In this document: one piece after another, positions 7,228-45,634 of the stretch
How positions within the stretch are numbered: the stretch's first letter is position 1
How the letters are laid out: every line of letters starts with the position of its first letter
Assembly (NCBI GenBank): GCA_026004495.1
Contig: BPJG01000001.1
Span: forward strand, 70,470 to 134,469
Source: Candidatus Parcubacteria bacterium
Lineage (GTDB): Bacteria > Patescibacteriota > Minisyncoccia > UBA6257 > HR35
Direction of reading: 5' to 3'
DNA: 64,000 nt
Notes under the pieces: generated by a model
The model's database searches: none
What the model was told of the DNA's origin: nothing
Seen by the model: the letters and a program-made list of their open reading frames with translations, nothing else
Position numbers and translations under genes: made by a program

Positions 7228-8044
7228 TAACCATGTATTTTATTTAGATAGAGGAAAACTAATTAGTGACCCCTCAAATTTAATCGATTTAACTCACAAA
7301 GAAATAAAAATCATAAGAAAGGGAGCTGATAATGATAAATTAGATAAATTTTTAAATTATAAATTAGTATAGACAGAATAACCCTGGGTATCATTTCTAC
7401 ATAGACATACCTTAAAGTTTATATCAATCTGTGATATATATTTTTTAGGTTTTTTGTTTTTAAATCTTGGAATTATTTTAATTAAAAAAGTTAAAATATA
7501 AAAATTCATAATTTCATTAGATTATTAAAATTATATCTATCAACATTATTAGGTGATTTATTAGAAACGTAATATTTTAATAAACTTAGTAACTAAAATT
7601 ATAATAGTAAGCTGTTGGAAGCAGATTATAAAAATTTATTTTAATAAAGATAAAATGTTTTTTTATGTACTATTTATAATATGTATATAAAGAAAGTCAA
7701 AGATAATTTTAATCCCTCAAGTTTGAGAAAATAGAAATTAGCCCTTAATAAAAGCATAGAAAAAATAAAACCAGAACATAGATCTTTTTGACTATATTAG
7801 AACATTTAAAAATTACATCATTAAAAGTATAATTATCTTATAAAATTAACCTTTCTTTAGTAATTATTTGATAGTCTTAAAGCTTCTATTGTATTAGTTT
7901 TATATTTTTTTACTTTTTTTAATATAAGAAATATTAAAATATCATTAAAAAAGGGGAATTCATAAAAATGAAACCAAAAGATAAAAGTTAAAATAAAATC
8001 AGAATTTTAGTTCAATGAAAATTTATAATAAAAAAAATTAATTT

Positions 8045-8182
8045 TTAAGATTCATCATTATTATCCTTATCTTTATCACATTTACAACATTCTGGACATT
8101 TATTGCATAAATCACATATATCTTTTTGTAATTTATAACATACCTTACAGAAATTAGATCTCTTTAATTTTTCTTCTTCCAT
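8045..8182 (-). CDS. Possible small Cys-rich (multi-CxxC) protein, 45 aa
   Basis: Manual translation of the minus strand gives MEEEKLKRSNFCKVCYKLQKDICDLCNKCPECCKCDKDKDNNDES. It was not in the ORF track because it is too short. Confidence 0.25.
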   Translation of the reverse strand: MEEEKLKRSNFCKVCYKLQKDICDLCNKCPECCKCDKDKDNNDES

Positions 8183-8231
8183 TAAATTATTTAAATATTA
8201 TAAAGAATTAATTATCGACCTAAAAATTTAT

Positions 8232-15271: not shown

Positions 15272-17161
15272 ATGTATAAAGAAAAAAATAAAAAAGAAAA
15301 AAGGAAAAGTGAATCAAGAAAAAAGGAAAATTTCTCTCAATTATTAAATCAAGAAATTTTGTCATTTAAAAATTTTAATGAATTCAATCCAACGCAAAAT
15401 ATTTTTGAAGTTAATTTAATGGAAAAATATATAATTAGGGAAATAAAAGGAGAAGATACTTTATTGCTAAGAAAAATTACTGATACAGAAGATTTAATCG
15501 ATGATAAAGAAACTGAAATAATCGAAGTTTTAAGTTTAAATTTTCCTGAAAGCGAAGAATACAAATTTCCAATAGAATACTGGATAAATTTATGGATAAA
15601 ATATGGCGGATGGATAGATCTTAATAATCTACCTCAAAAAAATGAGCTTTCAATAAAAGAAGCCAGAGAATTTTTTAGTAAAATTCCTTCAAAAACTGAA
15701 GTAATTTTTGATTATTATTTTTCTACTGAAGAAACATTATATAACTTTTGTAAATATAAATCCCAGCATTATTTATCAAGATATATTAGTTTCTTAAATA
15801 TCCATTTAGAAAACTTTAATTATGATATTGTAGGGATTAATTTAGATTATGAAAGATTTTTAGCCCTAAAAAGATATAAATTATTTGGCCGACCGATTCC
15901 TCTTGAAATTCTAAGCTTAGAAGAAATGAATTATTTATTAAGAAATGAAAGATTAAAAGAAGAATACCTTAGTAAAACAACAAAAAGAACATTTAATTGT
16001 GATTTAAATATACAAAATCCAACTTCAAATCAATACGCCGGAACTACAAGAATTATATATACAAAATTAAAAAATCCAGAATATTATCCTTATCACATTT
16101 TTTTAGGAAATCCTTCTGAAGAAGAAATAATAGAATATATTAAAGTATTATTAATTAAGAACTTAGTTTCATCATTTACCCAAAATCAATTTGATGAAAA
16201 TACAATAATTCAAAATTTAATTTTCAATTGTCAATTATATAAAATTTTAAAATCTGAAGATAAAATAATTCTTTTACCAACTGTTGCTACAATTCCTACA
16301 GCTTTTTTATTTAAATGGCTATTAAGGTATACAAAAAAAGAACTTATTAAAAGAGGTAGAGAAGATTTAGCAGAAAAAATTGTTATTCCTAAATTTTTAT
16401 TCATCAATAGTGAAAGTATATACTTAAGAGAAAATCTTAGTAATGAAGGAATTATGAATCAAATATTTCAAAATTTAAAAGAAGGATTAACAACTAAAAC
16501 ATTAGATGAAAAATTACAAGAACTAAAAAAAGAAATTGAAGAGAAGGGAAAAAATGAAGAAGAAAAGAAAAAATTAAATTTTTTAAAATATATTATCGAA
16601 TTTTCTTTGAATCTAAAAAAAAGATTGTATATAGTTAATAAAGAGTTATTTGATGATCTAAATATTGATAACCTAAGACAAAAATTATCAGAATTAAAAA
16701 TTTCTTTTTTAGATGATGCCACAGGAATGAAAGCTACATATTTTTTGTCCTATACATCTGCTTATTTGGCTATCTTAGATATATTAAAAGATAAACTTAA
16801 GAATGATTGGGATAAAATAAGAGATGAAATTTATGATATTTTGGAAAGGGAAATAATGCCCATTCAATTTACAGCTAATTTAGAATCATTAGATTATCAA
16901 ACTATTTATAATCAAAGTGCTAATAGATTTATTATTACAGAAAGATTGTTTATTGAATTACTTCCAATATTTAAAAGAAAAAAAGAAAAAAAGTCAGAAA
17001 ATCCAGAAATTATTTTAGAAAAACCAGATATAAAAACAGAAAAAATTTTGCACGACTTTAATACAAAAAAAATAGAAATATTAAAAGAAATATCTAAATA
17101 TTTATCTCCATTTTTAGCTGACTATATAATCACTTACCCAAATTTAGTTATCCCGAATTAA
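15272..17161 (+). CDS. Large hypothetical protein with a K/E-rich N-terminus
   Basis: 629-aa ORF with no recognisable motif. Confidence 0.4.
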   Translation: MYKEKNKKEKRKSESRKKENFSQLLNQEILSFKNFNEFNPTQNIFEVNLMEKYIIREIKGEDTLLLRKITDTEDLIDDKETEIIEVLSLNFPESEEYKFPIEYWINLWIKYGGWIDLNNLPQKNELSIKEAREFFSKIPSKTEVIFDYYFSTEETLYNFCKYKSQHYLSRYISFLNIHLENFNYDIVGINLDYERFLALKRYKLFGRPIPLEILSLEEMNYLLRNERLKEEYLSKTTKRTFNCDLNIQNPTSNQYAGTTRIIYTKLKNPEYYPYHIFLGNPSEEEIIEYIKVLLIKNLVSSFTQNQFDENTIIQNLIFNCQLYKILKSEDKIILLPTVATIPTAFLFKWLLRYTKKELIKRGREDLAEKIVIPKFLFINSESIYLRENLSNEGIMNQIFQNLKEGLTTKTLDEKLQELKKEIEEKGKNEEEKKKLNFLKYIIEFSLNLKKRLYIVNKELFDDLNIDNLRQKLSELKISFLDDATGMKATYFLSYTSAYLAILDILKDKLKNDWDKIRDEIYDILEREIMPIQFTANLESLDYQTIYNQSANRFIITERLFIELLPIFKRKKEKKSENPEIILEKPDIKTEKILHDFNTKKIEILKEISKYLSPFLADYIITYPNLVIPN

Positions 17162-18715
17162 CAAGCTAACAAAAAATTTACTTCCCCTACCTTCGCCTTC
17201 TGATTCGGCCCAAATTCTGCCTTGATGAGCTTCAACTAAATTTTTAACAATATAAAGACCTAAGCCAGTACCTCTAATTTCTTTTTTAATTGAAGGATCA
17301 CGAACAAATTCACCAAAAAGCTTACTTTGTAATTCTTTTGACATTCCAATTCCAGAATCACTAACACAAATTATTAATTCATTATTTTGTTTATAAACAC
17401 TTACCTTAACCCATCCTTGAGGAGTATATTTAATAGCATTATCAATTAAATTTTGTATGACTTGAGAAAATCTTAATTTATCAACTTTCAAAATTATTTG
17501 CTCAAGATTAGTTTCAAGACTTAGCTCTAAATTCTTTTCTTTGGCTAAAATAGTAAAATTATTTAAGATTTCTTTAATCAAACTAATAATTTCAACTTCC
17601 TCAAAATTAAGGTCCATTTTACCTTCTTCAATTCGTCGATAATCCATAAATTGTTCAATTAAAACCAAAAGCTTATCAACTGAATCTTTAATTTTTTTGG
17701 CAAAATCTTTTGCTTGTTCCGGCACATTTTCAATTCCATCAGCAATTAATTCAGCATAGCCTTTAACAACAGCCATCGGTGCTTTTACCTGATGCGACGC
17801 AAACGAAAGAAACTCCGATTTAATTCTATTTAATTTTTCCAATTTTTCTCTTAATTCAACTTCTTTTCTTACAGATTGTATAGTTATTAAAGAAACAATT
17901 AATATGAAAATAAATATTATTATTCTAATTAAAATTTCGATAAAATTAATGCTTATTAATATTTGGAATGCTGTTAAAATTAATAATATACTAATTAAAA
18001 TATCAATTAAAATAAATTTAATATTTAAGAATTGATAACGAACTATTGCTAAAAAAGTAAGTAAAATTAGGGGTATAGAATATAAAATACCAAATTGAAT
18101 ATATTTAGCGTTGCCAAATACATTAGGAAATATAAAATTAAAAATTATATGTAAGGTGAAAGTAACCAAAGCTCCGATAAATATTAAGATGGCGGAATAT
18201 TTTAGATTTGTCTCTTTAACAGAATAAATTTTTTTAATAAAACCAACAAAAAAGCTAATTAACAAACCTATTGTGGTTATACCAAATAATACTATACCAA
18301 TATTAGTTTTTACGCTTCCTATAGTGCCGTCAGGTTTAAATGAAATAATTTTTTCGAAAACTAACGGCGTTAATGTGAGTATCGAAACAAAAATAGTAAG
18401 TGGTAATAAAACATATTTAAAAGTTTTAGAATAATTAAAAGAAATATTAGGAAAAGCATAATACAAATTAAATATTGAGAAAGCGTACCAAATAGCAAAA
18501 AACATGTGTATCCTTAAAAAAATAAGTGCAAGGTTATTTAAATGCGGTTGATTGTATAAAAAATTGAAAATACCCCATAAAATAGTGCTTAGACTTAAGA
18601 GTAAATATGCAAAATTAGTAGCACCTTTTCTATTTTGGTTATAAATTATAAAACCTAATACTCCCATAGCACTAGCTACCCAACCTAAGATTATAAATAT
18701 GAAATTTTGGCTCAT
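17144..18715 (-). CDS. Sensor histidine kinase with a ~7-TM N-terminal domain
   Basis: H-box FLSFASHQVKAPM and HATPase_c GTGLGLYIVKNLVEAHQGRIWAESEGEGRGSKFF. Its start overlaps the upstream MTase stop (ATGA). Confidence 0.8.
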   Translation of the reverse strand: MSQNFIFIILGWVASAMGVLGFIIYNQNRKGATNFAYLLLSLSTILWGIFNFLYNQPHLNNLALIFLRIHMFFAIWYAFSIFNLYYAFPNISFNYSKTFKYVLLPLTIFVSILTLTPLVFEKIISFKPDGTIGSVKTNIGIVLFGITTIGLLISFFVGFIKKIYSVKETNLKYSAILIFIGALVTFTLHIIFNFIFPNVFGNAKYIQFGILYSIPLILLTFLAIVRYQFLNIKFILIDILISILLILTAFQILISINFIEILIRIIIFIFILIVSLITIQSVRKEVELREKLEKLNRIKSEFLSFASHQVKAPMAVVKGYAELIADGIENVPEQAKDFAKKIKDSVDKLLVLIEQFMDYRRIEEGKMDLNFEEVEIISLIKEILNNFTILAKEKNLELSLETNLEQIILKVDKLRFSQVIQNLIDNAIKYTPQGWVKVSVYKQNNELIICVSDSGIGMSKELQSKLFGEFVRDPSIKKEIRGTGLGLYIVKNLVEAHQGRIWAESEGEGRGSKFFVSLLIRDN

Positions 18716-19464
18716 TTCTTTATGATTATTAAAATATACCTTGATCTGAAAGTATTTTTTAGATCTTTAAAGTCAATACCTAAATTTTTATATTTTTCTT
18801 TAATTTTTCTAGTAAGTCTTCTAATAAAGAGATAATATTTCTTGATCCCGATTTTTTTTAAAATTTTTTTTATTTCTGATGGTAAATAAGCTGCTCGAGC
18901 TGAATAATAAATTAATTTTTTACTTAGATTATCAGGCGGTATAACCATTTTTAAAAGATAATAAGGTACATCTCTTCTTAAATCTTGAATATAAATTAAA
19001 CTATTTTGTTTTGTCACCCTTAGCATTTCTTTTATTGCTTTAGAAGTATTTTTAAATTGATGCAAACTATCTTTACACACAACAATGTCAAAATAATTAT
19101 TAGGAAAATTTAATTTATGAATATCATCTGAGATAAATTTTGTATTTTTGCAACCCTTACAGTTTTTCTTTGCCAATTGAAGTGCAAATTTAGTGTTGTC
19201 TATTCCGATAATTAAAGCATTTGGAAACCTTAAAGCAAGCTCTTTGCATAAAAACCCAGGACCACAACCTACATCAAGAATTTTAATTTTTTTATTGGTA
19301 TCTATTTTTGTTTTGGCAAATTCAATTAAATTATCAACAAGCGGAATTATCCACTTTTTATAATTTATTGTTGACATTTTCTCAAATTCTTTATGCTCAT
19401 TAATACCCATTTCTTTAGGTTCGGGAATCCTCTTTTTAAAAAATAGTTTTACTTTATTACCCAT
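18712..19464 (-). CDS. Class I SAM-dependent methyltransferase
   Basis: Motif I ILDVGCGPGFLCKEL and post-I IIGIDN. Confidence 0.75.
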   Translation of the reverse strand: MGNKVKLFFKKRIPEPKEMGINEHKEFEKMSTINYKKWIIPLVDNLIEFAKTKIDTNKKIKILDVGCGPGFLCKELALRFPNALIIGIDNTKFALQLAKKNCKGCKNTKFISDDIHKLNFPNNYFDIVVCKDSLHQFKNTSKAIKEMLRVTKQNSLIYIQDLRRDVPYYLLKMVIPPDNLSKKLIYYSARAAYLPSEIKKILKKIGIKKYYLFIRRLTRKIKEKYKNLGIDFKDLKNTFRSRYILIIIKK

Positions 19465-20987
19465 TTTTGTTTAATACCTGCCTTAAAATAAATTGGATCT
19501 TCGTAGGGGTGAAGGAAAATTTCTGGTTCTAATTGTTTTTTATATTTTTCTGAAGCCGTTGAATAAAGATGATTATATTCTGTTGAATGTTTAATTAAGG
19601 AGTTTACTACTTCTTTTTTAATTCGTTCTTTTAATTTAAAAGCCGGTTTTATATTCTTTTTCATCTCTATATGAATATGCAATTTTTGATTGTAATTTTT
19701 ATCATAGACAACTTGCATTGTAAATTTACCTGTAATATATTTTTGTAGTTCTGATTTTAATAAAGCTTGTCTAATATATTCAGGATATAAAATAATTCCA
19801 AACAAGGATACAGTAAAGTCAGATCTTTCATAAACATATACGAATGGCAATTTAAGAATTTTATCTTTTATTTTCAACTTCTCAGATTCTTTAAAGATAT
19901 CGATGCCTACTTCTTTTAATCTTTTTATCATTTCATCAAAATAAATAACCCCTCCATAATCAGGGAAACTATATCTTAGAATAGGAATTGAATCTCCATG
20001 TCCCGAGGCCAAGATTAAGCCATCTTTTTCTTCAAACCAAACAATATAAGGATGGTATTGAGCTAAAGTAGGAGTTCTGGTAGCGTCTCTAAAGAGATTT
20101 CTAAAAACTTTATCTTTTTCAACAGCAATGTGCCTTATTAGGTTGGAAAAAGCTGTTTCATGTGCCATAGTTCCAAGTTCAACTGTACCATAAATATTGA
20201 TATTATCATTAAGCATATTTTCAAGATTGACCTTATTAGCGATATACTTTCTAAAGCTTTCAGGAAAGCTTTCAGCAGCATTTAAGATTCTTATTTTGAA
20301 TTTTTTAAATTGAACCCCGGCTGATACTGCTTCGTCGACTAAATCCTTGACAGAAGGAGGATAACCAACAAGAATTATTTGATCGTAATAAAATGATAGT
20401 TTTTGGAAAGTTTTTAATATTAATTCTTTATTTACTCCTATAGGAGCAACTGTTAATGGATATTTTTCGCTGAGTCTGTAGTAAACATAATAATTATGTA
20501 ACCCCCCAATCCATATACCTAATCCAAAGCTCAAAATAACTAAAGTATTAAATTTATTAATACCCCATTGATTTAAAAAGGCAGTTTCTAGTACATACAA
20601 TCCCTGTTCATCCAAATTTTCTCCTCTAATAAAATAAAAAGGCTCACCAGTAGAGCCCGAAGTTGCTGAAATTGTTGTTAGATTTAAATTTTCATTTGGA
20701 TAGAGTTGTTGATAAGGATATTGGCGAAGATAATTATTTTTATTCATAATTGGTAATTTAGCTAAGTCTCTAAAACCAGTAATTTCTCGATAATTAATTC
20801 CATTTTCTTTTAAGAATTGTTTATAAGCTGGTGTTGTTTCAATGGTAAATTTTACTAGTCTATCTATTTGTTTTTTGCCTAAATTCAACCAATAATCAGG
20901 TGGTCGTGTTTTTAATTCCTTCAATCTTTTATCTATGTTTTTGGGATATTTAAAATATATAAATTTTTTGTCCATTATGTTTCCCAT
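19449..20987 (-). CDS. PaaK / coenzyme F390 synthetase-like adenylate-forming ligase
   Basis: TISATSGSTGEPFYF (the SSGTTG-type AMP-binding loop) and PaaK-like N-terminal context. Confidence 0.65.
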   Translation of the reverse strand: MGNIMDKKFIYFKYPKNIDKRLKELKTRPPDYWLNLGKKQIDRLVKFTIETTPAYKQFLKENGINYREITGFRDLAKLPIMNKNNYLRQYPYQQLYPNENLNLTTISATSGSTGEPFYFIRGENLDEQGLYVLETAFLNQWGINKFNTLVILSFGLGIWIGGLHNYYVYYRLSEKYPLTVAPIGVNKELILKTFQKLSFYYDQIILVGYPPSVKDLVDEAVSAGVQFKKFKIRILNAAESFPESFRKYIANKVNLENMLNDNINIYGTVELGTMAHETAFSNLIRHIAVEKDKVFRNLFRDATRTPTLAQYHPYIVWFEEKDGLILASGHGDSIPILRYSFPDYGGVIYFDEMIKRLKEVGIDIFKESEKLKIKDKILKLPFVYVYERSDFTVSLFGIILYPEYIRQALLKSELQKYITGKFTMQVVYDKNYNQKLHIHIEMKKNIKPAFKLKERIKKEVVNSLIKHSTEYNHLYSTASEKYKKQLEPEIFLHPYEDPIYFKAGIKQKWVIK

Positions 20988-22072
20988 TGTATAAAGGGTG
21001 GTTTTTTAACCGAGATGGCCGATGGTGGATCAGCTTTTCCTATTCTCATTACTGCGGTTAAAATATAATTATTTTTATCTACTTTAAATAATTCACATAA
21101 TTTTTGATAAGAATTATTAATAATGTTTAGCTCTTCTTCATTAAAAATATTTTTGTTTCCAAAATTAGCCTGTTGCCAAAAGAAAAATATTCCTGTAATT
21201 AGATGACAAGCTAAGTTTAACTTTGTAGCTCTAAGCCAAATATTTTCTATAAGCCTACCAAGATTTATAAATTCCTTATCATTATTAATAATAGAAAAAC
21301 CAATCATTGTGTTAGTAGCTGAATACATTTTAACTGTGTCTTTATAAATAGTTCTTACGATTCCTAATTTCTTCATTAATTTAAAGAAAGTAGTATTCCT
21401 TAAAAGTTTAATCATTAATATTTGAGGTGGTTTAAACTCCATTGTTTTGATATATAATCCCCTTTCTCCCTTTTGAGCTTTTTCTTTATCAAAAATGATC
21501 TCATTAAAAAGCAATTTTCTAAGATGGTCATTGTTAAAATTCAAATAAGTGTCATAAGCCAATAAACTGCCAATTTCATTTATTAAATCACCTTCAATTA
21601 TTGAAACCTTACAATTAGAGAAAAAATTAACTTCATTTAATAAATATTTTTTTTCTTCTTCTGTTAAGGCCTCTTTTTTGTAATGGTTTCTATTGGTTGT
21701 TCTTTTTTTAATATATTCATATAAGTCATCTTTCTCTTCAACGCCTGACTTTTCTAAAATAATTGAGGCTATGATATTATTTTCAAATTTCTCATTTATT
21801 GTTATTATGGGATTTAATTTATAATGCTTGGCTGTAATTACTATATTTTCAATTAAAGCCCCACAAGCAATTAAAGTACCTCTATTATTGTAATTTAATA
21901 TTGGATGATCTTTTTCTGGTAAATATCTTATTTTTATCGTATTTTGAGAAGCAATAAATTCCCATGGTTGAGAATTGCTTCCAGATGGAGCATTTAAGCT
22001 TTCTTTTAAAATATTTTCTATTAAAGATTTTTCAGGCATTTTTATTAATAATATTTTACAGCATATAATCAA
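20975..22072 (-). CDS. Nitroreductase-superfamily protein, double length (SagB/ThcOx-like dehydrogenase candidate)
   Basis: LNAPSGSNSQPWEF near the N-terminus and a second RTTNR-type motif mid-protein. 365 aa against ~200 aa for a simple nitroreductase. Confidence 0.6.
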   Translation of the reverse strand: MIICCKILLIKMPEKSLIENILKESLNAPSGSNSQPWEFIASQNTIKIRYLPEKDHPILNYNNRGTLIACGALIENIVITAKHYKLNPIITINEKFENNIIASIILEKSGVEEKDDLYEYIKKRTTNRNHYKKEALTEEEKKYLLNEVNFFSNCKVSIIEGDLINEIGSLLAYDTYLNFNNDHLRKLLFNEIIFDKEKAQKGERGLYIKTMEFKPPQILMIKLLRNTTFFKLMKKLGIVRTIYKDTVKMYSATNTMIGFSIINNDKEFINLGRLIENIWLRATKLNLACHLITGIFFFWQQANFGNKNIFNEEELNIINNSYQKLCELFKVDKNNYILTAVMRIGKADPPSAISVKKPPFIQWET

Positions 22073-22075
22073 TAT

Positions 22076-23188
22076 TTACAATTTTTTTAATTTTTTGAGG
22101 AAATATTTTTGTTGTTTTTTAAAATCTTTAGGTAAAATCGATAACATTTTATCAATATTTAATAAAATTCTTCCTTCTTTAATTTTTCCACCAAGAATAA
22201 TTTTTTTTGATAAATAAGAAACAGCTACACCGCATAAAGTTGCAGCATTACCTAATTGTGGCCAAGAATAAATTGTTTTTCCAACTTCTATTAATGAATA
22301 TAACATTCTTGGCGTTGCTAAATTAGCGCCTGCAATTTTGGCTGTAATCTTTATCATATCTTGAGGATTTAAATTTTTTAGATTTTCGGAAGATAAATTT
22401 CCCAAAAGACCATGAAGAATAGGATAATTAGGATTTAAATCGTATCTTTCGATGTCAATTAAAATATTATCGGCATGGTCTGTTGCCATAATTACAGGAA
22501 TTCTATATTTTTTAGCTTTCTCTCTTATTTTTATTTTGAGATAGAGATTATCCATTTCTTCAATTAAAACATCAATTTTAGGTTTAAGTAAAAAATTATC
22601 TATATTTTTATAAGTAATACCTTCTGAATAAATTTTCAAGCTTGCATAAGGATTTATTTCATAAATTTGTTGAGCACAATAAATTGCTTTATTAATTCCA
22701 ATCGACGAAATAGGATAACGTAATCTATTTAAATTAGATAAAGAAATTTCATCATTATCAGCTATTTTCATATATCTAGCTCCACCTATCATTGCGAGTG
22801 TTAAGGCTATATGAGAACCCACACTAAGACCTGCTATCCCTATTCTTGATTTATAAAACTTTATTTGTTCATCTTTGGTTAGAAGGTAAATATTTCTCGC
22901 AGTTTTAGTTTCAAAAAATTCTTTTTCATCTAAACAGTGAATTAATTTTTTATTCCAGGGGAAATATATCCATTTACCAACTTTATCTAATGTTTTATTT
23001 TTTAATTTTTTCTTTAAAAAATTTTCAAAATCTTGTTGATATTCTTTGATAAATTTATATTTAGGATTTTTAATTAAAAAATAATCTTCTAATTGTTTTT
23101 CGTAATTATCTATGATTTCTGATGGGTTTAATCTCTTTTTTAATAGCTCTAAACTTATATGATGAGCGTTAAAAATTAATGGCTTCAT
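22076..23188 (-). CDS. E1-like ThiF/MoeB/HesA family adenylyltransferase with a ~100-aa N-terminal extension
   Basis: IGIAGLSVGSHIALTLAMIGGARYMKIADNDEISLSNLNRL, a Gly-rich nucleotide loop plus the D-x-D...SNLNR motif. Confidence 0.75.
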   Translation of the reverse strand: MKPLIFNAHHISLELLKKRLNPSEIIDNYEKQLEDYFLIKNPKYKFIKEYQQDFENFLKKKLKNKTLDKVGKWIYFPWNKKLIHCLDEKEFFETKTARNIYLLTKDEQIKFYKSRIGIAGLSVGSHIALTLAMIGGARYMKIADNDEISLSNLNRLRYPISSIGINKAIYCAQQIYEINPYASLKIYSEGITYKNIDNFLLKPKIDVLIEEMDNLYLKIKIREKAKKYRIPVIMATDHADNILIDIERYDLNPNYPILHGLLGNLSSENLKNLNPQDMIKITAKIAGANLATPRMLYSLIEVGKTIYSWPQLGNAATLCGVAVSYLSKKIILGGKIKEGRILLNIDKMLSILPKDFKKQQKYFLKKLKKL

Positions 23189-23427: not shown

Positions 23428-23580
23428 ATGAGAGCCGTTCGAGTTGAAGAGCTAGAAATAATTTGTCACGAAGTAAGGCGCCGGATGTTCCAAACCATCC
23501 TCAATGCGGGAAGCGGTCATCTCTGTAGTTCGTCTTCCTCTGTGGAATGCATTTTTAGAAGTCTACAGAAATTTATAAAT
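23428..23580 (+). pseudogene. Transketolase / DXP-synthase N-terminal fragment (~45 aa of homology) behind a strong AAGGAGGT SD, then degenerate
   Basis: MRAVRVEELEIICHEVRRRMFQTILNAGSGHLCSSSSSVECIF resembles the SGHxGxSLSxxEI motif of transketolase N-termini. The ORF stops after 76 aa. Confidence 0.4.
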
Positions 23581-23893
23581 CTATATGTCTTCTGTTTAAT
23601 TTGTTTTGGTAATGTAAAATCCCATTCAGAATCTATACCCGGAGAACTGAAAGTATAAAGAAGTGATAGTCTGCTGTTTATAGAACTAGTAATTTCAAGA
23701 AGATGAGATAGAGTCATCCCATATCCGATAGAAGCAGAAACTGGTTTCTGGCTATTGTAATTGATCCCAAAAAGAAGTATTCTGCTGTCGATAAATTGTG
23801 TGGTAGTAAAATTGCTTCCGTGTATATTCTTTTGCCTACCCAGTTTTGTAGATGCCTCTCGACAAAAAATATATCAACGGCTAAAATTTATTG

Positions 23894-28229: not shown

Positions 28230-29027
28230 TTAAATTAAATTTAAATTAATTATTCGTTTTTTATCAAAAAGTTTTTTAAAATCGTGTCCAATCTTGTCCA
28301 TCAAAAAAACTTTTGCTTTAGAACATTTTGTTCTTTGAAAAAAAATAGAACTGGTGTAGTTAATTGTTTCATCTGATTTACCGTGAAATATAATGATGTT
28401 AGGGTAATTTTTATCCATTTTGATAAAAGAGTCAGCCTCCTTGCCGGAAAAATATTTATCCCAACATTTATTTTCTATTCCCCTGAAAGCAAATTTATAA
28501 CCTCTTCTAAGAAATTCGAGGAAAGATATATTGAATTCATAAAATGCTTCTATATTTTTTGGGTTTTCTAGATATGCTAAAACCTCTTTTTTATGTAAAA
28601 ATAGTAAAGGAGCAAATAATAAAACATTCTTTACATCATTTTTGGATACTTTTGCAGAGATAACCGGATTACCAGCAAAACTGTAACCAATTAAATGTAG
28701 ATTTTTGTAATTCCAATATATCTCTTTATTGTCAAAAGTTTTTATCCCTTTTTTCTTTTTTACGAACTCAACTGCTAATTCTACAGTTTTTTTGCAGTTC
28801 TTATAGGTAAAACTGCCTCCACTTAACCAGCTTCCCAGATAATAAACGCTGAAGAAAGCAGTTTTTTTATCTACCTTATCAATAAAAAAATCTTTATCGA
28901 TTATTTGCGGTAACCCAGGGAAATAAATAAAAATATTTTCGACATTTACCTTGCCATTGTTAAAACTATCTTTTGTATAGTAGAAATGCAGTGCTACATT
29001 TTTATAGATAAAAAGTTCTAATTCCAT
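28230..29027 (-). CDS. Alpha/beta-hydrolase fold protein
   Basis: GYSFAG nucleophile elbow, FHGKSDE and GHDF blocks. Confidence 0.6.
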   Translation of the reverse strand: MELELFIYKNVALHFYYTKDSFNNGKVNVENIFIYFPGLPQIIDKDFFIDKVDKKTAFFSVYYLGSWLSGGSFTYKNCKKTVELAVEFVKKKKGIKTFDNKEIYWNYKNLHLIGYSFAGNPVISAKVSKNDVKNVLLFAPLLFLHKKEVLAYLENPKNIEAFYEFNISFLEFLRRGYKFAFRGIENKCWDKYFSGKEADSFIKMDKNYPNIIIFHGKSDETINYTSSIFFQRTKCSKAKVFLMDKIGHDFKKLFDKKRIINLNLI

Positions 29028-29890
29028 ATTTTTTTAAGCTAATAAATATTTTTCCCTTTACCGCATCGATAATAATTTTTTTATTTCTATAGTTATCAAT
29101 TTTTCCTTTGATTATTTTTGATTCTACAAGACAAAAAATATTAAACTCTCTCGCTATGACTGCTATGTGTAAAAGAATGCCTCCAGTTATTATTAATCCA
29201 TTAATAAATGGAATTTTTTTAATCAACGAAATGTCCAGATTGCGTTTTACTAAAACAATATCATTTTATATTTATTTTATCATAATCTTCAATGTTTTTA
29301 ATTATTTTTAAAAATCAACTTGCGATACCCTTGTAAGCAATATTTCCTGTTCCTATGATTTTACTTTTGTCAAAAGTATAATTTATAATTTGGGGATATT
29401 TGTTCAGAGTTGTAATATTTCTACTTTGGAAAATATAAATTTCCTTACCGTCCCATCCCCATTCAATATCTAAGTATTCCCAAATATACCTTCAAGATTT
29501 AATGCTATCTTTGACAATTTTTTCAAAAATTTAGATTTCAGGTTATTTATTTTGGCTTTTTCAATTACCTTGATAATTGGTTTTTTATGACAACTAACAA
29601 CAGAATCTCCCAAGTCTTGGGTATATTCTACAATCATCTTATTGATATTTTGATTAAATGGATCGGCAGTAAATATCACTCCCGCAACACCTACGGGAAT
29701 CAATTCTTGAATGGCAATAGCCATACTTTCAAATTCCAGTCTGATATCATTTATTCGCGCGTATATTTTAGCATTATCACTAAATAAAGATCGATAACAT
29801 AATATAATTGCCTTTATAATATTTTCTTCCCCTTTTATATTTAAGAAGCTTGAATATTGACCAGCAAAGCTGAAAAAAGGGGGGATCCTC
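29002..29890 (-). pseudogene. PEP synthase (ppsA-like) N-terminal and phospho-His region, broken by several frameshifts
   Basis: SFAGQYSSFLNIKGEENIIKAIILCYRSLFSDNAKIYAR (PpsA SFAGQQETFLNV...ASLFNDRAISYR), MAIAIQELIPVGVAGVIFTADP (PpsA MAVGVQRMV..SGVMFS) and GGILLHIAVIAREFNI (phospho-His loop GGRTSHAAIIARE) lie in three different frames. Confidence 0.5.
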
Positions 29891-31020: not shown

Positions 31021-31308
31021 GAGTTGTTCTAATGAATTTTCAAGAAATTTTACAAAATTTAAACTTGACGGAGGAGTATTTTGATATTCAAAGAAGGATA
31101 AAAAAATTTAAGAGTTGATCAAATTTGTTCTTTAAGTGAATTGGTTGGGGGTCAAATTTAAAAGGTTAAATTTAAAAGAGAAGATTTAGAAAAGATAGCA
31201 AAATTAATTAAAGAAACAGACTCTGTTAATTTAGATACTATAATAACAGAAGCAAATTCAATTAAAGATCTTATTTTTTGGTTAGAAATTTTTGAAAAAT
31301 ATAAATAA

Positions 31309-31878
31309 ATGTATATTTCTCAGGGTAGATTTTGTTATATTGAAGAACTAACAACAGCCAATGATAAAGAATTATTTGAATTAATGAAAGAAAATGAAGA
31401 AGAGTATAGAAATTTAATTAGTGATCAACCCCTACCTCAAACTTATGAAGAATTTCGGGAAACATTGAAAACTTGGTTTACTCATGGAAGAAATTTTCAG
31501 TTTTTAGTCAGAAAAAGAGAAGGAGACAAAGTTATAGGTACTTTTTTCTTTTATTTTTGGGATCAAGAAAATAAAACAACTAAAATATCAGCCTATTTTA
31601 TTCCTGAAGTAAGAAAGACACCATTAATTGAAGAAGCATTAGGATTAGCTTTGATGTTTGCTTATAAAATAATGCATGTAGAAAAAGTAGAATTTTATGT
31701 TTATAGAGAAAACACTGAAATGCTTAACTTAGTTAAAAAATATAAGATTAATAAAGTATGTGAATCTCAAAGCGAAGTTAATCCTGAAAGAACATTAATA
31801 AACTTAGAAATCTCAAAAGAACAATTACAAGAAATATATAAAAAATTAAGAAGATTTTATGAGAGAAAGATAAGGTAA
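31309..31878 (+). CDS. GNAT-family N-acetyltransferase (probable)
   Basis: Length and pattern (VIGTFFFYFWD..., ALGLALMFAYKIMHVEKVEFYVYRENTEMLNLVKKYKI) resemble RimJ/RimL-like GNATs. Confidence 0.5.
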   Translation: MYISQGRFCYIEELTTANDKELFELMKENEEEYRNLISDQPLPQTYEEFRETLKTWFTHGRNFQFLVRKREGDKVIGTFFFYFWDQENKTTKISAYFIPEVRKTPLIEEALGLALMFAYKIMHVEKVEFYVYRENTEMLNLVKKYKINKVCESQSEVNPERTLINLEISKEQLQEIYKKLRRFYERKIR

Positions 31879-32140
31879 AAACCTGAATTTTTCTTAAATT
31901 TTTAACCTCCATCCAACCCCTGATAAATTGATTCTTGACCCGAATCCCATTAGAAGAAGCAAAAAAATTTATTCCATTTTGAAATTAAATTTAAAATAAA
32001 AGGTTATAAATAAAGAAAATTCTTGAATTAAAAAGTTTGATTTTAAGTAAAAAATTAAAAAAAAGAAGTATATAATATATAAAAAATTTTTCAGTTGATT
32101 AAAAAAGATTAAGAAAAGAAATTATTTGAATCAGTTATTT

Positions 32141-32309
32141 ATGGAAAAAAGAAACATTCTCAATAAATATCAAAAAAGATATATTTTCTCAAGATAACTT
32201 AAGTAAAAATTTCTATTTAACTGGTGGAACAGCCTTATCAAATTTATTAGTAACTTTTTATTTAAATAATAAAATTGATGAAAATTTAGATTTTTATATC
32301 AGAAATTGA
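32141..32309 (+). pseudogene. Frameshifted N-terminal fragment of an AbiEii/AbiGii-family nucleotidyltransferase toxin
   Basis: Two frames read MEKRNILNKYQKRYIFS / QDNLSKNFYLTGGTALSNLL...DENLDFYIRN*, matching the FxLKGGTAL and SEDIDF motifs of AbiEii. Confidence 0.35.
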
Positions 32310-32362
32310 TTTTACGTGATAAAATAATTACATATATTTTTTTTAATAAATTATAATTTTTT

Positions 32363-33409
32363 ATGATAAAAGAATTTAAAAGAGATCAACATAAAAATCA
32401 AACTTTATTTGAAAGATTCTTTGAATATAGACAACAAATAAAGAATTTATTTTTTCTATTAAAAAGAATTTTAACGATACCTATTATATACTATGATTAT
32501 CCGAGTGAAAAGATAAAAAATAGTCTTCAAAGAATTATTGACAACTTAGAAAAGAAGTACCCAGGTGATCAATGTCGTAAATATTTAACCTATCTTTTAC
32601 TAAAAGAAAATATAATTGGAGAAAGGGGAATAGTTCCTAAAAAAAGTGAGATTGAAAAGTTTGATTTTAAAGGCGAAGATTCTATTATTTATCAACTACA
32701 ATTATTTATTAAAAACTGGCAAAAAGAAAATGAGGAAATAATAAAACTTAGAAAAGAAAAAAATTTTAAGTCATATTTAGAATTATTAAAATTAACCGAG
32801 AATAATTTAAAAAATAAAAAAATTTTAGATATTGGAACAGGAGAAAATTATTTTATTGACTATTTATATGATAAAGAATTAACAAGTGGTTCTTATGGGT
32901 TAGATATTAAACCTCCAATATTAAATGAGGGACATTTTTTTATTGGTAAATTAGAAGAATTATCTTTTCAATCGGAATCCTTCGATTTGGTCACTTGTGT
33001 AAGTTCTTATCCTGGAATTTTTGTTTTTGAACTAATAGAATCAGAAGAAGTAAATGAATTAAATGAAGAAAAAATAAGAGAATTAATTAGGCAAGGATTA
33101 GAAGAAATGCTAAGAGTAACTAAAAAAGGTGGTGAAATAAGAATTACTCCATTTGCAAAAGAAATTATTTTTGATGAAGAAAAAATTAAGAAATACAAAA
33201 AAATTTATGAAAGATTAATTAAACAAAAAAAGCTAAATGAAATTATAATAGAGGAAATTGAAAATTATTGTAAGGAAACTCAAGCAAAATTAGAAATGGA
33301 ATTTCTTAAAAAAGAAAAATGTCCTATTTATATTAATAAAGATAACCAACCATTTAAAACAAAAAATTATTATATTGCTAATAATTATGTAATTATCATT
33401 AAAAAATAA
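32363..33409 (+). CDS. SAM-dependent methyltransferase-domain protein with a K/E-rich C-terminal extension
   Basis: ILDIGTGENYFIDYL (motif I), GLDIKP and FDLVTC. Confidence 0.55.
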   Translation: MIKEFKRDQHKNQTLFERFFEYRQQIKNLFFLLKRILTIPIIYYDYPSEKIKNSLQRIIDNLEKKYPGDQCRKYLTYLLLKENIIGERGIVPKKSEIEKFDFKGEDSIIYQLQLFIKNWQKENEEIIKLRKEKNFKSYLELLKLTENNLKNKKILDIGTGENYFIDYLYDKELTSGSYGLDIKPPILNEGHFFIGKLEELSFQSESFDLVTCVSSYPGIFVFELIESEEVNELNEEKIRELIRQGLEEMLRVTKKGGEIRITPFAKEIIFDEEKIKKYKKIYERLIKQKKLNEIIIEEIENYCKETQAKLEMEFLKKEKCPIYINKDNQPFKTKNYYIANNYVIIIKK

Positions 33410-33428
33410 AAAAAGAATAAATTTACTC

Positions 33429-33456
33429 TTGACAAATTTTTTTATTGAGGTATAAT
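33429..33456 (+). promoter_or_regulatory. Sigma70-type promoter for tandem unit 1 (TTGACA, 16-nt spacer, TATAAT)
   Basis: Both hexamers match the consensus: 33429-33434 and 33451-33456. Confidence 0.55.
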
Positions 33457-33462
33457 TATTAT

Positions 33463-33527
33463 CGGCTCTAACCCCTATGTCCTCGTCTCTGATATGGAAT
33501 GGAAGCTCCTGCTTCCATTTTTTTTTA
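33463..33527 (+). ncRNA. Candidate small RNA, unit 1 (a ~60-nt transcript ending in an intrinsic terminator)
   Basis: Consensus promoter, then a ~37-nt unique core, then a GGAAGC-TCCT-GCTTCC hairpin and a T9 run (33501-33526). Confidence 0.35.
33495..33527 (+). terminator. Rho-independent terminator (hairpin GGAAGCTCCTGCTTCC plus T-run)
   Basis: A 6-8 bp GC-containing stem with a 4-nt loop, followed by TTTTTTTTT. Confidence 0.6.
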
Positions 33528-33576
33528 TTCGTGTATTAAATTTAGATTTTCATGATATAATAATTAAAAAAATATC

Positions 33577-33604
33577 TTGACAAATTTTTTTATTGAGGTA
33601 TAAT
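33577..33604 (+). promoter_or_regulatory. Sigma70-type promoter for tandem unit 2 (identical to unit 1)
   Basis: TTGACA 33577-33582 and TATAAT 33599-33604. Confidence 0.55.
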
Positions 33605-33610
33605 TATTAT

Positions 33611-33672
33611 TAGTCTTGCCATAACCGTATCCGAATCACCTAAATTTGGAAGCTCCTGCTTCCATTTTTTTT
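33611..33672 (+). ncRNA. Candidate small RNA, unit 2 (diverged core, identical terminator)
   Basis: Same architecture as unit 1. The core is TAGTCTTGCCATAACCGTATCCGAATCACCTAAATT. Hairpin 33648-33663 and T-run 33665-33672. Confidence 0.35.
33642..33672 (+). terminator. Rho-independent terminator of unit 2
   Basis: GGAAGCTCCTGCTTCC followed by T8. Confidence 0.6.
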
Positions 33673-33767
33673 ATTCGTGTATTAAATTTAGATTTACATG
33701 ATATAATAATTAAAAAATAAAACTTTTTATGTTTTTAAATAAATTTTATAATATAAAAAAATAGAAA

Positions 33768-34502
33768 ATGGATAAAACTTTAAGGAATTCAATCATAGTT
33801 TTTTTATTTTCCTTTTTAATAATATGTTTTTGGTTTGCTTATGAATACTCAAAAAATGTTAAAGTCAAAAGATTAATTACTGTAATCGGCGAAGGGGAAG
33901 AAATTGTTACGCCTAACATTGCCGAAATAAGAATTGGAATAATTACGAAGGGTGAAGATTTAAAAACTATTCAAGAAGAAAATGATAATAAAATAAATAA
34001 AATTATAGATTTTATAAAGTCAAATGGAATTGATAGTAAAGATATTAAAACAGAAAATTATACAATTCATCCAGATTATGATTATAATACTTATCCTTCT
34101 CAAATTATTGGCTATAGCATAAGTCAAAATTTGAAAGTTAAAATTAGAGATTTGAATAAAATAAGCAATATTTTAAAAAAAGTAGTGTCTGAATATGGTG
34201 CTAATGATGTTTATGGACCTGATTTTACTGTTGACGAAATAGAAAATTATTTAGAAAAAGCAAAAGAAAAAGCAATTTTAAATGCCAAAGAAAAAGCTGA
34301 AAAAATTGCAAAAACAGCTGGAGTTAAATTAGGTAGAATAATAAGTATAAGCGAATCTTCAATATCTGGTAGAGACTTAAGTTCATTTTATAATTCCGCT
34401 GGTCGAGGAGGTGGTGAGTATATTATACAATCATCTCCCAAAATAGAACCTGGGTCTCAAGAAATAAAAACTCAAGTAAGCGTAATTTTCGAAATTAAAT
34501 GA
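33768..34502 (+). CDS. SIMPL-domain (DUF541, BP26/OMP28-like) protein with a signal anchor
   Basis: The pattern ...IHPDYDYN...YSISQNLKVKIRDLNKISNIL...AKEKAILNAKEKAEKIAK is typical of the SIMPL family. Confidence 0.65.
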   Translation: MDKTLRNSIIVFLFSFLIICFWFAYEYSKNVKVKRLITVIGEGEEIVTPNIAEIRIGIITKGEDLKTIQEENDNKINKIIDFIKSNGIDSKDIKTENYTIHPDYDYNTYPSQIIGYSISQNLKVKIRDLNKISNILKKVVSEYGANDVYGPDFTVDEIENYLEKAKEKAILNAKEKAEKIAKTAGVKLGRIISISESSISGRDLSSFYNSAGRGGGEYIIQSSPKIEPGSQEIKTQVSVIFEIK

Positions 34503-38368: not shown

Positions 38369-38695
38369 TTAATCTAAACCTAATTCTTCTATAGTTTTAT
38401 CTAAATATTGTTCAATTGAATCTTCACCAGGGAGATCAATATCTTTAATTTGTTCCTCAATTGGCGTACTGCCTATTAAGATATGGTAAGCCGAGTATTT
38501 TAATAATTCATCTTGTCCATATTTTTCTTCAAGTTTCTTACAAAATTGGGTTATTATTCTATGATATTCTTCTCTAAAGTTTTTAGATTGTAATATATGT
38601 TTATTAAAAATAATTTCTATTTTTTTTCTAATCCGCTCATTGATTTCTTTGTTATTGTCATTTCTTTCTAAATTAAAATTAAATTTATCTTTCAT
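38369..38695 (-). CDS. Hypothetical protein
   Basis: 108-aa ORF. Confidence 0.35.
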   Translation of the reverse strand: MKDKFNFNLERNDNNKEINERIRKKIEIIFNKHILQSKNFREEYHRIITQFCKKLEEKYGQDELLKYSAYHILIGSTPIEEQIKDIDLPGEDSIEQYLDKTIEELGLD

Positions 38696-43518: not shown

Positions 43519-45169
43519 AAGAATAGAAAACAGATTAAAAATTTTAGGCAGAAAATTAATTGATAAAGATTTTAATGATTTGAAAAAAAATTTATTTATT
43601 TCTCACTGCGATAATTTAGATCATGGTGACTACTATTCTAATTTTATATTTTTATTAGCAAATAAAACAAAATTAAGCGCTAGGGAAATATTTGAAAAAA
43701 CTAAAGATTATTTAGAAAAACTATCCTATATTAAAAAGGTTGAACTTATTAACGGTTATCTTAATATTTTTATTCAAAAAAAAGTTTTTTTTGAAGACTA
43801 TAAAAAAGTTTTATTAAAAAAAGAAAATTTTTTAAAGAATAACTGGGGAAGAAATAAGAAATTAATAATTGAATATATTTCAGCTAATCCAACTGGACCT
43901 TTACACATAGGTAATGGTAGAGGAGCAGTTTTAGGAGATATTTTAACTAATGTACTTAAACTATCAAACTTTAGGGTAACTAAAGAATATTATGTTAACG
44001 ATAGAGGTAATCAAATAGATTTATTGGTAAAATCTGTTTTACATTATCTAGGTAAAATTTCAAATGAAGAAAATATTTATAAGGGTGATTATCTTAAAGA
44101 ATTTGCCTTTAAATATAAGAAAGAATTAGAAAATATGTCAATTGAAGAAATTAAAAAATTTACCGTTAAATATATCTTATCTAAATTAATTAAACAAACA
44201 TTAAAAAATTTTGGCACTAATTTTGATAATTTTTATTTTGAAACTGATCTTTATTCTAAAAATACAGATAAAGAAGTAATAAAAATTTTAACTAAAAAAG
44301 GATTAATTTATGAAAAAGATGGAGCTACTTGGCTTAACTTAAAAAAATTTAATGAAGCTAAAGATGAAGTATTAATTAAAAATAATGGCGAACAAACTTA
44401 TTTTTTATCTGATATTATTTATAACTATGATAAATTTTTTATCAGAAAGTTTCACTATTCAATTATGATTGTCGGTAGTGATCATCATGATCATATTAGA
44501 AGATTACAAAAAACATTTGAATATATTTTTAATGTTGAAGCCAAAAGATTTAAATTTATTGAATATCAAATGGTTCATCTGTATAAACAGGGTGAAAAAA
44601 TTAAAATGTCAAAAAGAAAGGGTGAATTTGTAACCCTTGATGAATTAATTAAAGAAGTAGGAGTTGAACCAATAAGATTTTATTTTGCTAAATATTCACC
44701 TGAAATTACTATTAATTTTGATTTAAATGTGGTCAAGAAAGAAAATATTAATAATCAAATTTGGTATTTAATGTATACCTACGCCAGATTTAATAAGATT
44801 TTAGAAAAAGCAAAAGAAAAAAAATTTAAATTTGATTATCGACAAAACTTAAAAACTAATCTAACTAAAAGTTTCATTTATTTAATAAATCAAGATAATT
44901 ACTTAAAAATATTTAGAAGAATAAATCAATTTCCTTTAGTAATTTTAAATTCAGCAATCAATCTAAGGCAAAATTATGTAATTAGTTATTTACTAAAATT
45001 AGCAGATGAACTTAATAGTTTTTATGAAAAAGAAATAATAATTAAAGGCGATTCAAAAGAAATTAGATATAAACTTATTTTTATCTATTATCTCAAAAAT
45101 ATTCTTGATTTAGGCCTTCATCTTATTAATATAAAGCCTAAAAAAGAATTGCATAACCCGATAAGTTAA
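43508..45169 (+). CDS. argS: Arginyl-tRNA synthetase
   Basis: SANPTGPLHIGNGRGAVLGD and KMSKRKG. Confidence 0.9.
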   Translation: MLAKRIENRLKILGRKLIDKDFNDLKKNLFISHCDNLDHGDYYSNFIFLLANKTKLSAREIFEKTKDYLEKLSYIKKVELINGYLNIFIQKKVFFEDYKKVLLKKENFLKNNWGRNKKLIIEYISANPTGPLHIGNGRGAVLGDILTNVLKLSNFRVTKEYYVNDRGNQIDLLVKSVLHYLGKISNEENIYKGDYLKEFAFKYKKELENMSIEEIKKFTVKYILSKLIKQTLKNFGTNFDNFYFETDLYSKNTDKEVIKILTKKGLIYEKDGATWLNLKKFNEAKDEVLIKNNGEQTYFLSDIIYNYDKFFIRKFHYSIMIVGSDHHDHIRRLQKTFEYIFNVEAKRFKFIEYQMVHLYKQGEKIKMSKRKGEFVTLDELIKEVGVEPIRFYFAKYSPEITINFDLNVVKKENINNQIWYLMYTYARFNKILEKAKEKKFKFDYRQNLKTNLTKSFIYLINQDNYLKIFRRINQFPLVILNSAINLRQNYVISYLLKLADELNSFYEKEIIIKGDSKEIRYKLIFIYYLKNILDLGLHLINIKPKKELHNPIS

Positions 45170-45634
45170 ATAAAAACATATAAAGGCTATAATAATTCCA
45201 AAAATTATATCAATTGGCCAATGCATTAATGATAACCAACTTAAAATTGCTATCAAAATTGATAAAATAAATAAAAAGAATCCTAATTGAATATTAGAAA
45301 TTAAAGTTACGAATGAAATAGCAAAGGATAAGGTTGTGTGTCTTGAGGGGAAACTATCTAATCTTTGCTCCTCAAAAGGAAAAAAATAACTTATTGGCCT
45401 TAAGGACTTAAATTGACCATTGATTAAAATAATAAAAATAAAAGAAAAGAAAAGAACTATTACTAACTCTAAAAGGTAGATTTTATTTAATTTTTTATTA
45501 TGAATAAAAGATAAAATAATATTACCAAAAGAAAAAATGAAAACTAATCCAAGTAAAAAATCTCTTAAAACATCAAAAAAGTATATTAAGTTATAATTAT
45601 CTTTTAAAATTAAAAAAATGAATTCTGTGGCCAT
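45110..45634 (-). CDS. PAP2-family phosphatase (membrane)
   Basis: SFPSRHTT and the later H..D block. Confidence 0.62.
   Translation of the reverse strand: MATEFIFLILKDNYNLIYFFDVLRDFLLGLVFIFSFGNIILSFIHNKKLNKIYLLELVIVLFFSFIFIILINGQFKSLRPISYFFPFEEQRLDSFPSRHTTLSFAISFVTLISNIQLGFFLFILSILIAILSWLSLMHWPIDIIFGIIIAFICFYLTYRVMQFFFRLYINKMKA

Follow-up and report, generated by a model that had tools for sequence, protein, structure and literature searches.

What are the two nearly identical units that lie head to tail between a methyltransferase gene and a SIMPL/YggE-family gene in the genome of the hot-spring bacterium Candidatus Parcubacteria bacterium KatS3mg094? The stretch analysed here, called the window below, is 64 kb long and represents ~10% of that genome. 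A preliminary description had called the units candidate small-RNA (sRNA) genes, and this fits their anatomy: both have a promoter matching the consensus at 12/12 positions, divergence that begins at about +1, a strong terminator, a GC-enriched core and a 5' body predicted to be largely unpaired. We tentatively read them as two adjacent, independently transcribed candidate sRNA genes, each of which would yield a product of ~65 nt acting in trans; judged from the sequence, we give this reading slightly less than an even chance.

Inspection of positions 33000-34200 together with a repeat search placed unit 1 at 33427-33574 and unit 2 at 33575-33720, a tandem pair with a period of 146-148 bp (Table 1), in agreement with the ~150-bp pair first reported. 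Their promoter blocks (TCTTGACAAATTTTTTTATTGAGGTATAATTATTAT), which include the identical TTGACA-16-TATAAT elements already noted, agree at 36/36 positions. The terminators are likewise identical, as had been claimed: the hairpin blocks (TGGAAGCTCCTGCTTCCATTTTTTTT, 33500-33525 and 33647-33672), with the hairpin TGGAAGCTCCTGCTTCCA, match at 26/26 positions and lead into runs of nine and eight T's. The tails, ~47 nt per unit, had also been described as identical, and here near-identical is the better word: T-run plus tail (33519-33571 versus 33665-33717) agree at 52 of 53 positions, the sole single-nucleotide polymorphism (SNP) in the flanks being a T at 33550 versus an A at 33696. The units also differ in two homopolymers (T9 versus T8 and A7 versus A6). 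Tail 1 joins the promoter of unit 2 at the junction AAAAAAATATCTTGACA. The variable core of ~37 nt was confirmed too, with strict limits corrected to those in Table 1. Identity between the units ends 6 nt past the -10 hexamer, approximately at the expected +1, and returns at the foot of the terminator stem, so that the variable part is exactly the non-terminator body of the predicted transcript.

Table 1. Positions of the parts of the two units and of the flanking genes in the window
Feature	Coordinates	Strand	Remarks
Unit 1, promoter block P1	33427..33462	+	-35 TTGACA 33429-33434, 16-nt spacer, -10 TATAAT 33451-33456, then TATTAT to ~+1
Core 1 (37-nt variable body, predicted transcribed)	33463..33499	+	Predicted 15-nt unpaired 5' end, 7-bp hairpin, unpaired C/U-rich 9-nt loop
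Terminator 1	33500..33526	+	Stem-loop GGAAGC-TCCT-GCTTCC 33501-33516 (extendable to 33496-33521); T9 33518-33526
Tail 1	33527..33574	+	Extended -10 motif TGATATAAT 33553-33561, possible second promoter P2 into unit 2
Unit 2, promoter block P1	33575..33610	+	-35 at 33577-33582, -10 at 33599-33604
Core 2 (36-nt variable body, predicted transcribed)	33611..33646	+	Predicted almost fully unpaired
Terminator 2	33647..33672	+	Stem-loop as in terminator 1, 33648-33663; T8 33665-33672
Tail 2	33673..33720	+	TGATATAAT 33699-33707 directed at the SIMPL gene; Logan contig L001 begins within
Class-I S-adenosylmethionine (SAM) methyltransferase, 348 aa	32363..33409	+	Upstream neighbour; N-terminal domain of no known family
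SIMPL/YggE-family gene	33768..34502	+	Downstream neighbour; further TATAAT 14 nt before ATG

The signals that frame the cores are rare in this genome. Both promoters match the sigma-70 consensus at 12 of 12 positions with a 16-nt spacer, and a scan of the 64 kb found no other 12/12 site. The exact string TTGACA-N16-TATAAT occurs twice in the window, both times in these units, versus 0.04 occurrences expected, and none of 100 shuffles reached two. Intrinsic terminators were called in both units and rated strong, and good intrinsic terminators are rare across the window. On the minus strand we found weak 9/12 promoter-like matches and no terminator. With a promoter and a Rho-independent terminator of their own, an intergenic position and no open reading frame (ORF) common to both, the units have the generic layout of trans-encoded sRNA genes. 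We infer that transcription would start from the consensus sigma-70-type promoter at ~33463 in unit 1 and 33611-33613 in unit 2, and would stop ~65 nt further on at the identical GGAAGC/GCUUCC hairpin and U-run. Since their promoters are identical, the two genes would be co-regulated and highly expressed. The two products would be alike only in the 3' terminator hairpin, which would provide termination and stability, while the unrelated, largely single-stranded, GC-enriched 5' bodies would be the functional, sequence-specific parts with which the predicted RNAs may base-pair in trans with different partners.

Several properties of the cores bear on this proposal. Global and local alignment scores of core 1 against core 2 coincide with the mean obtained from 5000 shuffles (p about 0.5), and the TAACC..TAT..TCC skeleton that the cores had been said to share is therefore a product of chance. 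The tested core strings have 50% GC (core 1, 38 nt) and 38% GC (core 2, 37 nt) versus 24% for the genome, which makes them GC islands comparable to tRNA genes, though weaker. Functional RNAs in AT-rich genomes tend toward GC enrichment. The predicted RNAs of 66-68 nt have significantly more stable folds than their shuffles (z = -3.7 and -3.4). Table 1 gives the unpaired segments of RNA 1, and in RNA 2 the first ~33 nt would be largely unpaired; a test for pairing between the two cores returned p = 0.13. Cores of this composition might be expected to find better pairing partners in structured or foreign nucleic acids of higher GC content than in the cell's own, very AT-rich mRNAs.

Might the units encode peptides instead? 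The 20-aa ORF reported for unit 1 does exist (33477-33539), two further ORFs of 28 and 24 aa run through hairpin and tail (33494-33580 and 33646-33720), one reading frame stays open through the tail of each unit, and a minus-strand peptide beginning MEAGAS... could be added to the list. We nonetheless regard small-peptide genes as hardly probable: neither strand has an ORF common to both units, the candidate ORFs start at different points, lie in different frames, differ in sequence and cross the terminator hairpin, and unit 2 has nothing that corresponds to the 20-aa ORF, as the preliminary description had already remarked. The minus-strand peptides would measure 16 and 9 aa, and that strand has just a weak 9/12 promoter-like match. 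The suggestion of type-I-toxin or antisense RNAs fared no better: we found no conserved hydrophobic toxin ORF, no antisense partner and nothing complementary to the cores.

Is the tandem copy real? The genome is metagenome-assembled and short-k assemblies break at repeats of 36-72 bp, so two strain alleles of a single unit could in principle have been misplaced in tandem. To this we can oppose an independent k=31 Logan assembly (run/sample DRR290133), whose contigs hold the methyltransferase and SIMPL genes separately. Contig L002 stops at window position 33456, one k-mer ahead of the block common to both promoters, and contig L001 starts at 33666, with its first 31-mer ending on the SNP of the unit 2 tail. 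These break points imply that the reads hold two left promoter contexts and two tail variants, as two copies predict, whereas a bubble made by two alleles would give one promoter left context and one tail variant. The two homopolymer differences likewise speak against misplaced alleles. We conclude from the contig ends, which stop short of read-level proof, that the tandem copy is real, and that an assembly artefact is scarcely credible.

Two groups of results weigh against the interpretation as sRNA genes, one concerning relatives and the other targets. Additional units, for which the preliminary description had proposed a search, were found neither in the window nor in GTDB species genomes, JGI metagenomes or IMG/VR. 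More precisely, the window holds no further promoter block, hairpin or tail at up to 3 mismatches; the hairpin with its T-run had no match in 185,579 GTDB species genomes, IMG/VR or JGI metagenomes; promoter and tail had none in IMG/VR; and a degenerate promoter...hairpin pattern had none in JGI metagenomes. Eighty SIMPL loci were retrieved for comparison. In the seven closest homologues (54-60% identity, L003-L009) the sequence that precedes SIMPL is unrelated, as it is in the two best SIMPL matches from a large protein collection (70% and 61%; L085 and L086), and no such units lie behind the only close methyltransferase homologue (58%, genome KatS3mg095, locus L083). A BLAST comparison of the units with every retrieved locus gave no match. 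When the window and 86 loci were scanned for a promoter, short body and terminator in succession, only these two units, ordinary gene starts and one unrelated RNA in L086 were returned. An Rfam search, also foreseen earlier, gave nothing at the gathering score or at a permissive threshold, the best match being an L20 leader on the minus strand (22.4 bits versus a gathering score of 58.7). As no homologue or further copy was found, conservation and covariation cannot support the element, and as far as can be seen among the collections and loci searched it is specific to the KatS3mg094 genome. Two other candidate relationships were rejected. A dispersed repeat of the miniature inverted-repeat transposable element (MITE) or repetitive extragenic palindromic (REP) type does not fit just two adjacent copies with no terminal inverted repeats. 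The segment 31880-31995 scored as a paralogue of a hypothetical ancestor combining core 1 and core 2 (shuffle p = 0.004), but unrelated genome-wide windows and a reversed control scored alike.

The second group concerns targets, and the scope of that search, ~10% of the genome, counts on the same side. A search for targets, with 33768-33800 included, had been proposed; none in the window rose above shuffled controls. By BLAST and k-mers the best match of the cores in the window was one of 11 nt at 8377-8387, antisense inside an ORF. Duplex energies of the cores with the 62 start regions of the window were no better than those of shuffled cores, and the longest Watson-Crick or G-U helix on either strand of the window was no longer than with shuffles. 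Comparison with 15 Patescibacteria tRNAs gave nothing above shuffles, nor did alignment to an E. coli rRNA operon. By eye, core 2 resembles the 3' end of 16S rRNA (UAACCGUA...AUCACCU); this mimicry did not exceed shuffles against the E. coli operon and is treated as chance. Furthermore, the commonest sRNA mechanism is occlusion of the ribosome-binding site, and only 1 of 59 window genes (23428-23658) has a Shine-Dalgarno motif, which makes such occlusion or anti-Shine-Dalgarno pairing unlikely. Many window genes have a TATAAT 6-12 nt ahead of the ATG, and the gene starts suggest leaderless or Shine-Dalgarno-independent initiation.

How, then, might the pair have arisen? With one SNP and two homopolymer differences in the flanks, the duplication would be recent, and it would have copied a cassette of promoter, core, terminator and tail over 147/148 bp. 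Flank divergence of ~1% around unrelated cores rules out duplication plus drift; near-identical promoters and terminators around unrelated inserts of equal length call for either core replacement or concerted evolution of the flanks. One or both cores may have been replaced after the duplication, through recombination with a third copy or allele or through an insertion-like process. Alternatively, short-tract gene conversion may have homogenised the flanks while selection held the cores apart. The preliminary description had itself considered a simple recent duplication with no further copies or targets: copies and targets are indeed lacking from what was searched, but with unrelated cores between near-identical flanks the duplication was not simple.

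The same observations have to be weighed for a functionless by-product, in which the methyltransferase terminator and SIMPL promoters were duplicated in tandem, any short transcripts are idle and the cores are leftover or filler, for instance remnants of deleted genes in a decaying variable region. That the pair is unique to KatS3mg094 and absent from the relatives searched would be expected on such an account, as would the lack of targets. The surroundings at 29-33 kb do form a decaying, variable region, with a fragment of pyruvate-phosphate-dikinase (PPDK), an AbiEii remnant and a gene order unlike that of the sister genome KatS3mg095. Terminator 1 is, moreover, the sole terminator available to the methyltransferase gene, and since that gene lacks one of its own, terminator 1 would end its transcript too. 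However, neutral duplication cannot yield flanks that are 99% identical around unrelated cores, 12/12 promoters and strong terminators are otherwise absent from the genome sample, and GC-enriched cores are unlike neutral sequence at 24% GC. SIMPL, for its part, has its own TATAAT near the ATG. We therefore consider a by-product unlikely, though far from negligible.

Within and beside this region we made several further observations. The segment 29027-30559 comprises 1.5 kb without an intact gene; it holds an 84-aa fragment of pyruvate-phosphate-dikinase and the minimum of the cumulative GC skew, and it marks the switch of the genes from the minus to the plus strand. A GNAT acetyltransferase gene (31298-31879) has 89% DNA identity to KatS3mg095 (L083), the adjacent methyltransferase just 72%. 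Positions 32114-32350 (within 32011-32350) are what remains of an AbiEii gene, of which KatS3mg095 has an intact copy. Differing gene order and uneven identity between the two genomes suggest a recombining variable island.

Could the units act in cis on their neighbours? The flanking genes are those reported before, a methyltransferase upstream and a SIMPL-domain gene downstream (KatS3mg094_100 and KatS3mg094_101, names cut off in the search output), and both have the same orientation as the units. On this hypothesis the units would form an attenuator or insulator that governs read-through into SIMPL or isolates it from the methyltransferase transcript, with the cores as binding sites for a regulator. 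A promoter, short leader and terminator just upstream of a gene are the classic attenuator layout, the shared orientation fits, and the extended -10 motif in the tail points downstream. Yet no Rfam leader or riboswitch reached threshold, the L20-leader match being both sub-threshold and on the wrong strand, and a leader of just 36-37 nt, offering no alternative antiterminator fold, falls below the size of known riboswitches. Unit 1 leads into another promoter rather than a gene, nothing comparable lies upstream of SIMPL homologues, and TGNTATAAT is present at chance frequency (13 sites versus 10 expected). A cis-acting element thus appears improbable.

A guide function had also been suggested, and the units can be described as a mini-array of guide-RNA cassettes: a 110-bp 'repeat' of terminator, tail and promoter, 36-37-nt cores as 'spacers', and the hairpin as a protein handle. 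Each spacer would be separately expressed and would direct an effector whose gene lies elsewhere; the orphan methyltransferase next to the units is a conceivable candidate. Near-identical flanks around unrelated, spacer-like inserts of 37 and 36 nt are a signature of insert-acquiring arrays, the higher GC content of the cores relative to the host would be compatible with their being foreign, and the locus sits in a variable island with an Abi remnant. Against this stand the presence of two units only and a Pfam scan of 60 of the 62 window ORFs (unscanned: 29002-29226 and 45110-45634), which found no Cas, TnpB/IscB, Argonaute, reverse-transcriptase or Nop domain and hence no RNA-guided effector domain; what it returned, including enolase, aminoacyl-tRNA synthetases, IMPDH, Mur ligase, SecF, CdaA, Fpg and LepA, is ordinary for a region of a small Patescibacteria genome. 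There was no protospacer-like match in IMG/VR, INPHARED or PLSDB: exact core halves had none in IMG/VR, the cores had only matches of E >= 2 in INPHARED, and the whole region gave chance matches at most in INPHARED and none in PLSDB. No related array was found in the collections searched, and the methyltransferase homologue of KatS3mg095 has no such units behind it. Finally, the methyltransferase was considered as an RNA-related partner and set aside: its structural model (predicted local distance difference test score, pLDDT, 70) matches only generic class-I methyltransferases, at a template-modelling (TM) score of about 0.3, and there was no PDB sequence match, so the modelled fold lends no support to an RNA-guided enzyme. 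We rate a guide cassette as very improbable, and give marginally less credence still to the more specific proposal that the pair is the part we can see of a guide-RNA system of cassette type that lacks cas genes, with foreign ~37-nt inserts, ~65-nt RNAs and an effector that lies elsewhere or is the methyltransferase.

Should the units prove to be sRNA genes, they would offer a concrete starting point for sRNAs in Patescibacteria, the Candidate Phyla Radiation (CPR), for which to our knowledge essentially no regulatory small RNAs have been described. The usual sRNA mode is unlikely to apply in a genome nearly without Shine-Dalgarno motifs, and any function would be mechanistically informative. 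Further units in the genome, if there are any, would favour a cassette mechanism. Unusual as the modular pattern is, the case is thin at present: one locus in one metagenome-assembled genome, with no homologues or targets found.

Other features of the window and the related loci deserve brief mention. An ORF of 108 aa at 38369-38695 shows weak similarity to the methyltransferase's N-terminal domain (LEEKYGQDELLKY...GEDSI, pairwise E = 0.001), and the domain common to the two may represent a lineage-specific family. Downstream of the methyltransferase homologue in KatS3mg095 (L083 11684-11822) lie 139 GC-rich nt ending in a strong terminator (-48.7 kcal/mol, z = -3.9), with no Rfam match and no counterpart in the window; they are a candidate novel structured RNA. 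Near SIMPL homologues we noted three things. The RNA that the scan returned from L086 (952-1104, JGI 3300022544) lies between SIMPL and yjbQ, has an 11/12 promoter, a GGA-rich body of ~115 nt and a 15-bp terminator, and gives a sub-threshold CsrB/RsmB match (24 bits versus a gathering score of 71). Directly upstream of the closest SIMPL homologue (70%; L085 1-90, an ENA contig) is a very GC-rich, hairpin-forming sequence (GGGGGGGCGGGGC...GCCCCCGCCCCCC) at the contig start of an otherwise AT-rich genome, with no Rfam match. Upstream of SIMPL in bacterium HR35 (L003 3680-3770) are direct repeats aatcagcgtttatccgttta reminiscent of decamers in the window. These decamers flank an in-frame PD-(D/E)XK (PF13366) domain (aa 197-309) in an NDH2-type oxidoreductase ORF (2073-3941, especially 2520-3120), with tandem repeats of the type ACGCAGACT on the left and their inverse AGTCTGCGT on the right; they recur within the enolase ORF, where they separate the N-terminal domain from the C-terminal one, and ahead of NDH2 (700-790 and 1985-2071). 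The decamer-flanked insert has the appearance of a mobile insertion that housekeeping genes tolerate in frame. Elsewhere, 7228-8231 is 1 kb without an ORF of at least 60 aa, between Sua5/YrdC-like and M23 peptidase/amidase genes. A minus-strand cluster at 17144-23188 encodes a histidine kinase, a SAM methyltransferase, a 512-aa protein of no known function, a nitroreductase-like and a ThiF-like protein; the kinase, a 509-aa protein, the nitroreductase-like and the ThiF genes recur in KatS3mg095 (L083 3911-9096), and the cluster resembles peptide-modification clusters of the ribosomally synthesized and post-translationally modified peptide (RiPP) type.

Which known system do the two units resemble most? 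Arrays of clustered regularly interspaced short palindromic repeats (CRISPR) have at least 3 direct repeats of 23-55 bp and unique spacers of similar length, and the type II-C repeats of Neisseria and Campylobacter, about 36 bp long, carry promoters. As in type II-C arrays, conserved blocks here alternate with unrelated inserts of ~36-37 nt and the promoter lies in the preceding block; in contrast, the conserved block measures ~110 bp and contains a terminator, and neither cas genes, a trans-activating CRISPR RNA (tracrRNA) nor protospacers were found. With two units, no Cas domain in the scanned window ORFs and no spacer matches, only the 37/36-nt length of the cores fits a CRISPR array, and we rejected this assignment. 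Type III toxin-antitoxin RNAs of the ToxI kind offer another partial parallel, since they too are short RNA-coding units repeated in tandem, with a terminator, ahead of a gene. The 34-36-nt repeats of ToxI are near-identical, however, form a single transcript and precede an endoribonuclease toxin, whereas the transcribed bodies of our units would be unrelated and are followed by a SIMPL-family gene; this assignment, too, was rejected. Tandem interspaced guide RNA (TIGR) arrays are built from 36-nt units, in each of which edge and loop repeats surround two 9-nt spacers; they are processed from one precursor, lie next to a gene for the Nop-domain protein Tas, and have been reported from Patescibacteria, among others (PMC12045711). 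Our units share with TIGR-Tas the tandem, interspaced, guide-like arrangement, but they recur with a period of 147 nt, each would be transcribed by itself and no scanned window ORF encodes a Nop-domain protein, and this assignment was rejected as well. Sibling sRNAs such as OmrA/OmrB of E. coli, PrrF1/PrrF2 and AbcR1/AbcR2 are defined by the similarity of their RNAs; OmrA and OmrB have their first 21 and last 35 nt in common and differ in their promoters (PMC4211561). The pair described here has the inverse pattern, with identical promoters and terminators around an entirely unrelated 5' body, including any seed, so that the terminator hairpin is the only part common to the RNAs. It also comes with no known Hfq-type context or target. 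It shares with tandem siblings the two copies in one genome and the predicted layout of two short, separately transcribed RNA genes placed head to tail in one intergenic region, each with a promoter and Rho-independent terminator of its own, and with OmrA/OmrB a divergent middle between conserved ends. Altogether, tandem sibling sRNAs are the closest known kind.

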